DNA of 64,000 nt, from assembly GCF_044647545.1 (NCBI RefSeq), contig NZ_CP172818.1. One strand, written 5' to 3'. The stretch is from Escherichia coli (lineage in GTDB: Bacteria; Pseudomonadota; Gammaproteobacteria; Enterobacterales; Enterobacteriaceae). Below, in pieces: positions 30,390 through 30,448 of the stretch (position 1 is its first letter; each line of letters opens with the position of its first letter). The notes beneath the pieces were generated by a model that saw nothing but the letters and a program-made list of their open reading frames with translations, had not been told where the DNA came from and ran no database searches. The position numbers and the translations under genes are program-made.

Positions 30390-30399
30390 CTGTTGGCCA

Positions 30400-30431
30400 A
30401 AAAAACCGCCGAACATGTCGGCGGCTTTCTG
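30400..30431 (-). terminator. bidirectional rho-independent terminator (A7-CCGCCGA-acatg-TCGGCGG-CTTTCT) ending the nuo operon and yfbM
   Basis: 7-bp GC stem with T7 run on the minus strand, immediately 3' of the nuoN stop. Confidence 0.65.
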
Positions 30432-30448
30432 ACTTACGAACTGACAGC

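Follow-up and report, generated by a model that had tools for sequence, protein, structure and literature searches.

The junction between yfbM and nuoN in the genome studied here is best explained as the frequent, compact form of a long-standing presence/absence polymorphism at the 3'-end of the nuo operon, terminated by a hairpin and carrying a private microdeletion on top, an explanation to which, taken as a whole, we assign a probability of about 85%. The evidence comes from the window, by which we mean the whole 64-kb stretch of Escherichia coli DNA that was analysed, and from its comparison with other genomes of the genus. In the proposed scenario, one hairpin would end the nuo transcription by means of a strong U7 tail, and probably also the yfbM transcription by means of a weak tail. 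In a minority of strains including K-12, the few bases that separate the yfbM stop codon from the A-tract of the hairpin are swapped for a short, GC-poor stretch of orphan genes, and IS elements have landed at the same spot as well. There is no sign of site-specific integration, and the alleles would most likely move through homologous recombination within the core genes on either side. The private change, a complex microdeletion of net 25 bp, lies on top of the compact allele and spares the terminator.

Layout of the locus

According to the list of open reading frames, yfbM (29904..30389, + strand, 486 nt and 161 aa, a DUF1877 protein) and nuoN (30449..31906, - strand, 485 aa), the final gene of the nuoA-N operon, converge on a spacer of 59 bp (30390..30448), so that the gene ends at 30389 and 30449 and the spacer length given in the original prediction are borne out. 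The YfbM product is matched by Pfam DUF1877 (E=5e-33) and by the solved structure PDB 1RYL, entitled 'yfbM' (E=1e-101). The spacer itself reads CTGTTGGCC-AAAAAAA-CCGCCGA-ACATG-TCGGCGG-CTTTCTGACTTACGAACTGACAGC.

Alignment shows the window to be collinear throughout with strain FDAARGOS_497 (NZ_CP033850.1, from about 4936731). The two differ by one substitution at position 4432 and by a cluster of differences at 30384-30398, the rest being identical, and the window nuoN shows no differences from the nuoN annotated in that strain. Such near-identity over 64 kb indicates that the window strain is a near-clonal relative of FDAARGOS_497. By the annotation of the latter, the gene context extends from glpC to the arn operon, the men operon, elaB/A, rbn, elaD, yfbK, yfbL and yfbM, and continues beyond the junction with nuoN-A, lrhA and alaA as far as hisP.

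Comparison with K-12

In K-12 MG1655 the gene order is yfbM(+), yfbN(-), yfbO(+), yfbP(+) and nuoN(-) (b2272-b2276 region), just as the original prediction had it in placing three additional genes between yfbM and nuoN. Its reading of the window as an empty-site configuration is likewise right, since the flanks are collinear with K-12 and the island DNA is absent. The alignment to K-12 which it proposed for defining the breakpoints locates them in the short interval after the yfbM stop codon and ahead of the terminator's A-tract: the match extends 5 nt beyond the yfbM stop of the window and restarts some 9 nt short of the hairpin stem, with about 2.56-2.57 kb of K-12 DNA being skipped. Expressed in terms of the compact spacer, about 16 nt (GGTGTCAGGGCACCA) are replaced in K-12 by about 2.56 kb, and in all configurations the variable DNA stops no more than a few bases away from '...CACCA(T)AAAAAAA'. 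The window and K-12 are thus alike in the flanks (yfbK-yfbL-yfbM to the left of the junction and nuoN-nuoM to the right) and in the terminator hairpin adjoining nuoN, whereas K-12 holds a remnant of an SMI1/KNR4-like gene together with yfbN, yfbO and yfbP, none of which the window has, the window having in addition 25 bp fewer than the normal compact junction. The GC content of the island is 0.33-0.46, against 0.52-0.60 in nuoN/nuoM.

Domain searches gave little for the proteins encoded there. NCBIfam and PADLOC scans of YfbN, YfbO, YfbP and YfbM were empty or far under the cutoff, and Pfam yielded a sub-threshold TPR match for YfbP, a sub-threshold UBA-like match for YfbN and none for YfbO; with these results, the idea that the K-12 island is a defence system is unsupported and was set aside. 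The functions of yfbN and yfbO are described as unknown (PMC5010248), and the elaB-yfbP block was deleted in the genome-reduced strain DGF-298 (PMC10652928). Published mentions are incidental, nothing specific having been found in the literature on yfbN/O/P or on DUF1877.

Frequency of the junction types

We surveyed 5,426 complete E. coli genomes. The compact junction, counted by at least 80% coverage of a 141-nt probe across its standard form, is found in 4,213 genomes (~78%), and the K-12-type island, counted by at least 80% coverage of the K-12 island, in 946 (~17%), many of which are laboratory derivatives of K-12. About 270 genomes are neither compact nor of the K-12 type. Occupied junctions contain islands of 1.4-2.6 kb or IS elements, and the occupants seen in the remaining genomes include a divergent yfbN'+yfbO' at 85% identity lacking yfbP (strain A21), a deletion mediated by IS1 which left yfbP alone, insertions of IS200/IS605 and of ISEcB1, and an intact SMI1/KNR4-family gene followed by yfbN' (14 genomes). 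The compact state is therefore the majority allele and K-12 belongs to the minority, and strain variability of the junction, as claimed in the original prediction, is plain from these counts. Its description as an insertion point stands in so far as the site is variable; most genomes surveyed have the empty state, and ancient insertion and loss are both possible histories. Recurrence of the junction type of the window in 4,213 genomes, in E. whittamii and in another species-level lineage shows that the compact state is no one-off.

A pattern of this kind is familiar. Comparisons of the K-12 and O157:H7 genomes gave rise to the concept of K-islands and O-islands, the small indel islands of the E. 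coli pan-genome, and the block yfbN-P resembles them as a small, low-GC set of orphan genes which varies by lineage at a fixed position in the core genome. It differs from them in having neither mobility genes nor repeats, and in that its alleles are common to several Escherichia species. As such, the presence/absence pattern is of an already known kind and is, for practical purposes, visible in any annotated genome comparison; of little importance as it is, it confirms K-12 as the atypical strain at the yfbM-nuoN locus and marks the yfbN-P block as a dispensable accessory segment.

The predicted terminator hairpin

A predicted intrinsic-terminator hairpin for the end of the nuo operon lies at 30399..30430 (- strand), with the stem CCGCCGA (30406-12)/TCGGCGG (30418-24) of 7 bp, six of them G-C pairs, and the 5-nt loop ACATG. 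On the + strand A7 (30399-30405) stands before the stem and CTTTCT after it, so that the nuo transcript, from the - strand, reads GCCGCCGA-CAUGU-UCGGCGG-UUUUUUU. The fold of the - strand has a free energy of -18.6 kcal/mol with z=-4.5, and none of 200 shuffled sequences was as stable. For the yfbM transcript, from the + strand, the stem is unchanged, the tail is CUUUCU with three U only, and z=-2.6. Judged by what defines an intrinsic terminator, both the GC-rich stem (5 bp or longer) and the loop of 3-8 nt are present, and a U tract directly 3' of the stem is found for nuo and, weakly, for yfbM. By these sequence criteria the hairpin is an intrinsic terminator for nuo, at which termination is predicted. 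The original prediction of one bidirectional terminator in the spacer is right as regards the single hairpin; bidirectional termination is plausible from the two tails, but in an asymmetric form (U7 on the nuo side against CUUUCU on the yfbM side, with z=-4.5 against z=-2.6).

The likeness to known bidirectional intrinsic (Rho-independent) terminators between convergent genes covers the GC-rich 7-bp stem, the 5-nt loop, the position between convergent stop codons, and the A-tract on one flank with a T-rich run on the other; the difference lies in the asymmetry of the window hairpin, a predicted terminator. A consensus scan for promoters and terminators gave no call at 30399-30430, a negative that we set aside given that direct folding shows a clear hairpin with U7. 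The miss may have arisen from the A- and T-tracts extending the stem and using up the T tail, and negatives of the consensus scan are unreliable for bidirectional terminators with A-tract and T-tract. No Rfam family was found in the spacer, the matches to sroD and ryfA being at chance level, and our literature search returned nothing on a terminator of nuoN in E. coli.

The hairpin is unchanged across compact junctions from three Escherichia species and differs in the island-bearing strains in the loop only, by one substitution in K-12 and by a shortened loop in 2017-02-2CC. It adjoins nuoN in every configuration examined, which means that the nuo operon keeps its terminator irrespective of the DNA beyond. 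As a side observation, strains with SMI1/KNR4 and yfbN (extracted locus L014, about 6040-6070) have a shorter-loop hairpin, CCGCCGAAATCGGCGG, followed by T7 on the + strand, and their bidirectional terminator is more symmetric than that of the window.

Age of the two alleles and the possibility of loss

Four loci came out of a scan of species-representative genomes. The one from E. whittamii is compact and has almost the same 16 nt at the junction, and so is that of a species-level lineage labelled E. coli SCPM-O-B-8794, whose 16-nt sequence is of the E. whittamii type; Escherichia sp. MOD1-EC7003 has the island, the locus being cut inside it, and the E. albertii contig ends 11 bp past the yfbM stop codon. 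With compact and occupied alleles in several Escherichia species, both alleles cross species boundaries. To judge from the shared junction sequence, the compact junction is old and arose once. Island alleles are 85-90% identical (differing by about 10-15%) and the flanks 95-98% identical (differing by 2-5%), and this greater divergence of the island implies either old age or repeated import. Apart from its private lesion, the window strain has nothing recent at the junction.

The fullest island forms seen consist of an SMI1/KNR4-like gene and yfbN. The former is an ORF of 191 aa directly after yfbM in Escherichia sp. MOD1-EC7003 and in 14 E. coli genomes, labelled 'SMI1/KNR4 family protein' by PGAP and matched by Pfam SUKH at sub-threshold level only (E=0.01-0.1). 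The gap of 272 bp between yfbM and yfbN of K-12, apparently non-coding, is a 3' remnant of such a gene, from which it follows that the K-12 island is itself a decayed form. In the extracted loci the remnant or gene lies at 6509-6780 in K-12 (L001), at 6656-7231 in L009 and at 4651-5223 in L014. K-12 and A21 have an identical breakpoint of truncation, immediately after the yfbM stop codon.

These forms bear on a different history, in which the compact junction would be a deletion product, namely the end point of a decaying ancestral block of at least four genes (SMI1/KNR4, yfbN, yfbO and yfbP). The island variants can be ordered as a nested decay series, where K-12 and A21 share the 5'-truncated SMI1/KNR4 remnant with the same left breakpoint and where yfbP, or yfbO together with yfbP, is missing in other variants; the occurrence of the island in a different Escherichia species and its allelic identity of 85-90% fit an old island, the ends of the fullest form show a short CAC/CACCA microhomology, and the neighbours yfbK and yfbL have also been lost in some strains. 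However, all four genes are intact in none of the genomes examined, the low GC and the orphan gene content fit acquired DNA, and the near-identical 16-nt junction in E. coli, E. whittamii and the third lineage argues for a single origin of the compact form, no later than that of the island. On balance we regard derivation by deletion as a rather unlikely history.

In the same region, strains 54214 and FORC_082 retain yfbK as remnants only, and E. whittamii has lost most of yfbL (neighbour-gene remnants at 1380-1565 of L006, 2487-2664 of L007 and 5668-5899 of L008). From such comparisons, erosion seems to affect the entire elaD-yfbP block, in a manner that differs from lineage to lineage.

A private lesion at the end of yfbM

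Relative to the standard compact junction, as represented by FDAARGOS_497, C10, O157:H7 and ATCC 8739, the window has the same gene order and the same hairpin, but the spacer of 66 bp and the YfbM of 167 aa (504 nt) found there become 59 bp and 161 aa (486 nt) here. The cause is a strain-private lesion at 30384..30398, where the others have GCGCTGACGGTTATTGTTGGGTGATGGGGTCAGGGCACCA and the window has GGCTGACTGTTGGCC, a net change of -25 bp; with its context, ...ATCATGCGCTGACGGTTATTGTTGGGTGATGGGGTCAGGGCACCAAAAAAAACC... becomes ...ATCATGGCTGACTGTTGGCCAAAAAAACC... in the window. It may be described as gaps of 1 and 24 nt plus four substitutions, or as four gaps, and no single simple deletion accounts for it. 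The reading frame of yfbM shifts at six codons from the usual stop, so that the protein ends in ...QGNHG* instead of the usual ...QGNHALTVIVG*, and the hairpin with its U7 tail is intact despite the lesion. The original prediction saw no scars in the 59 bp, which needs qualifying, given that, relative to every other compact junction, a private lesion of net 25 bp removes the last six codons of yfbM.

None of the 5,426 complete E. coli genomes matches a 47-mer that covers the lesion, and in a catalogue of about 15 billion proteins the exact 161-aa YfbM (WP_400164148.1) is on one contig only, from an NCBI E. coli assembly. A search of the 64-kb window for a donor of a templated change found none, the lesion sequence having no second copy there. 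If real, the lesion is a possible strain-specific marker.

Rarity of this degree raises the question of a sequencing or assembly artefact, in which case the strain would truly have a 66-bp spacer and a YfbM of 167 aa. Besides the single contig and the zero count among complete genomes, such an error is suggested by the complexity of the lesion, with several gaps or substitutions within 40 bp of an otherwise identical 64 kb, and by its position beside a homopolymer run and a strong hairpin. Against it, comparison of the other 63,975 bases with FDAARGOS_497 turns up a single substitution and not one indel, which speaks against a generally error-prone assembly, and typical long-read errors are homopolymer indels of 1-2 nt, not losses of 24 nt. 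Because of this absence of indels elsewhere, we favour, with some confidence, a real private mutation over an artefact, which we consider unlikely; the lesion would then probably be a real and nearly neutral mutation.

A possible cassette site or attachment site

A broader proposal is that the slot between yfbM and the nuo terminator is a long-lived cassette site of Escherichia, in which SUKH-type (SMI1/KNR4) immunity-like genes together with yfbN, yfbO, the TPR protein YfbP and perhaps the DUF1877 protein YfbM would have been gained, exchanged by homologous recombination in the flanks, and eroded. We hold this to be improbable; if it were true, the 25-bp lesion would be a further sign of ongoing instability at the slot.

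As to mobile elements, no repeat of at least 10 nt, direct or inverted, pairs the ends of the K-12 island, where only short matches at chance level occur, so the original prediction that attachment-site repeats are not evident is upheld. Its further check, on duplication of the hairpin at the island ends, returned a single K-12 copy, on the nuoN side. Flanking direct repeats of the attL/attR type are absent from the K-12 island, and the islands encode no integrase or recombinase, only YfbN, YfbO, YfbP and the SMI1/KNR4-like protein. An excision scar of an IS or transposon is not seen either, since the 59 bp consist of the terminator and unique sequence, with no target-site duplication or remnant of terminal inverted repeats. 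That the junction is the att site of a mobile integrative element, with the window in the unoccupied state, is consistent with the same few bases holding different DNA in different strains, but is very improbable in view of the islands of K-12, A21 and 2017-02-2CC, which have no integrase, recombinase or transposase, of the island ends without repeats, the unduplicated hairpin and the absence of an annotated tRNA at the site, and of the IS insertions there, which are independent ordinary transpositions. An old polymorphism with a common compact allele thus remains our preferred reading, and one small practical use of the site is as a tolerated insertion point beside a strong predicted terminator.

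Other features of the window

Two minor observations were made elsewhere in the window. The Rfam nuoG RNA motif (RF01748) is found inside the nuo operon at 40576-40618 (- strand) with 48 bits, the gathering score being 33; its presence within this operon is expected for E. coli. Near the start of the window, positions 515-680 and 734-875 are about 82% identical in direct orientation, and they correspond to the 3'-end of rpnE (annotated 'ISNCY family transposase') and to an adjoining annotated partial pseudogene, and so form a partial tandem duplication.
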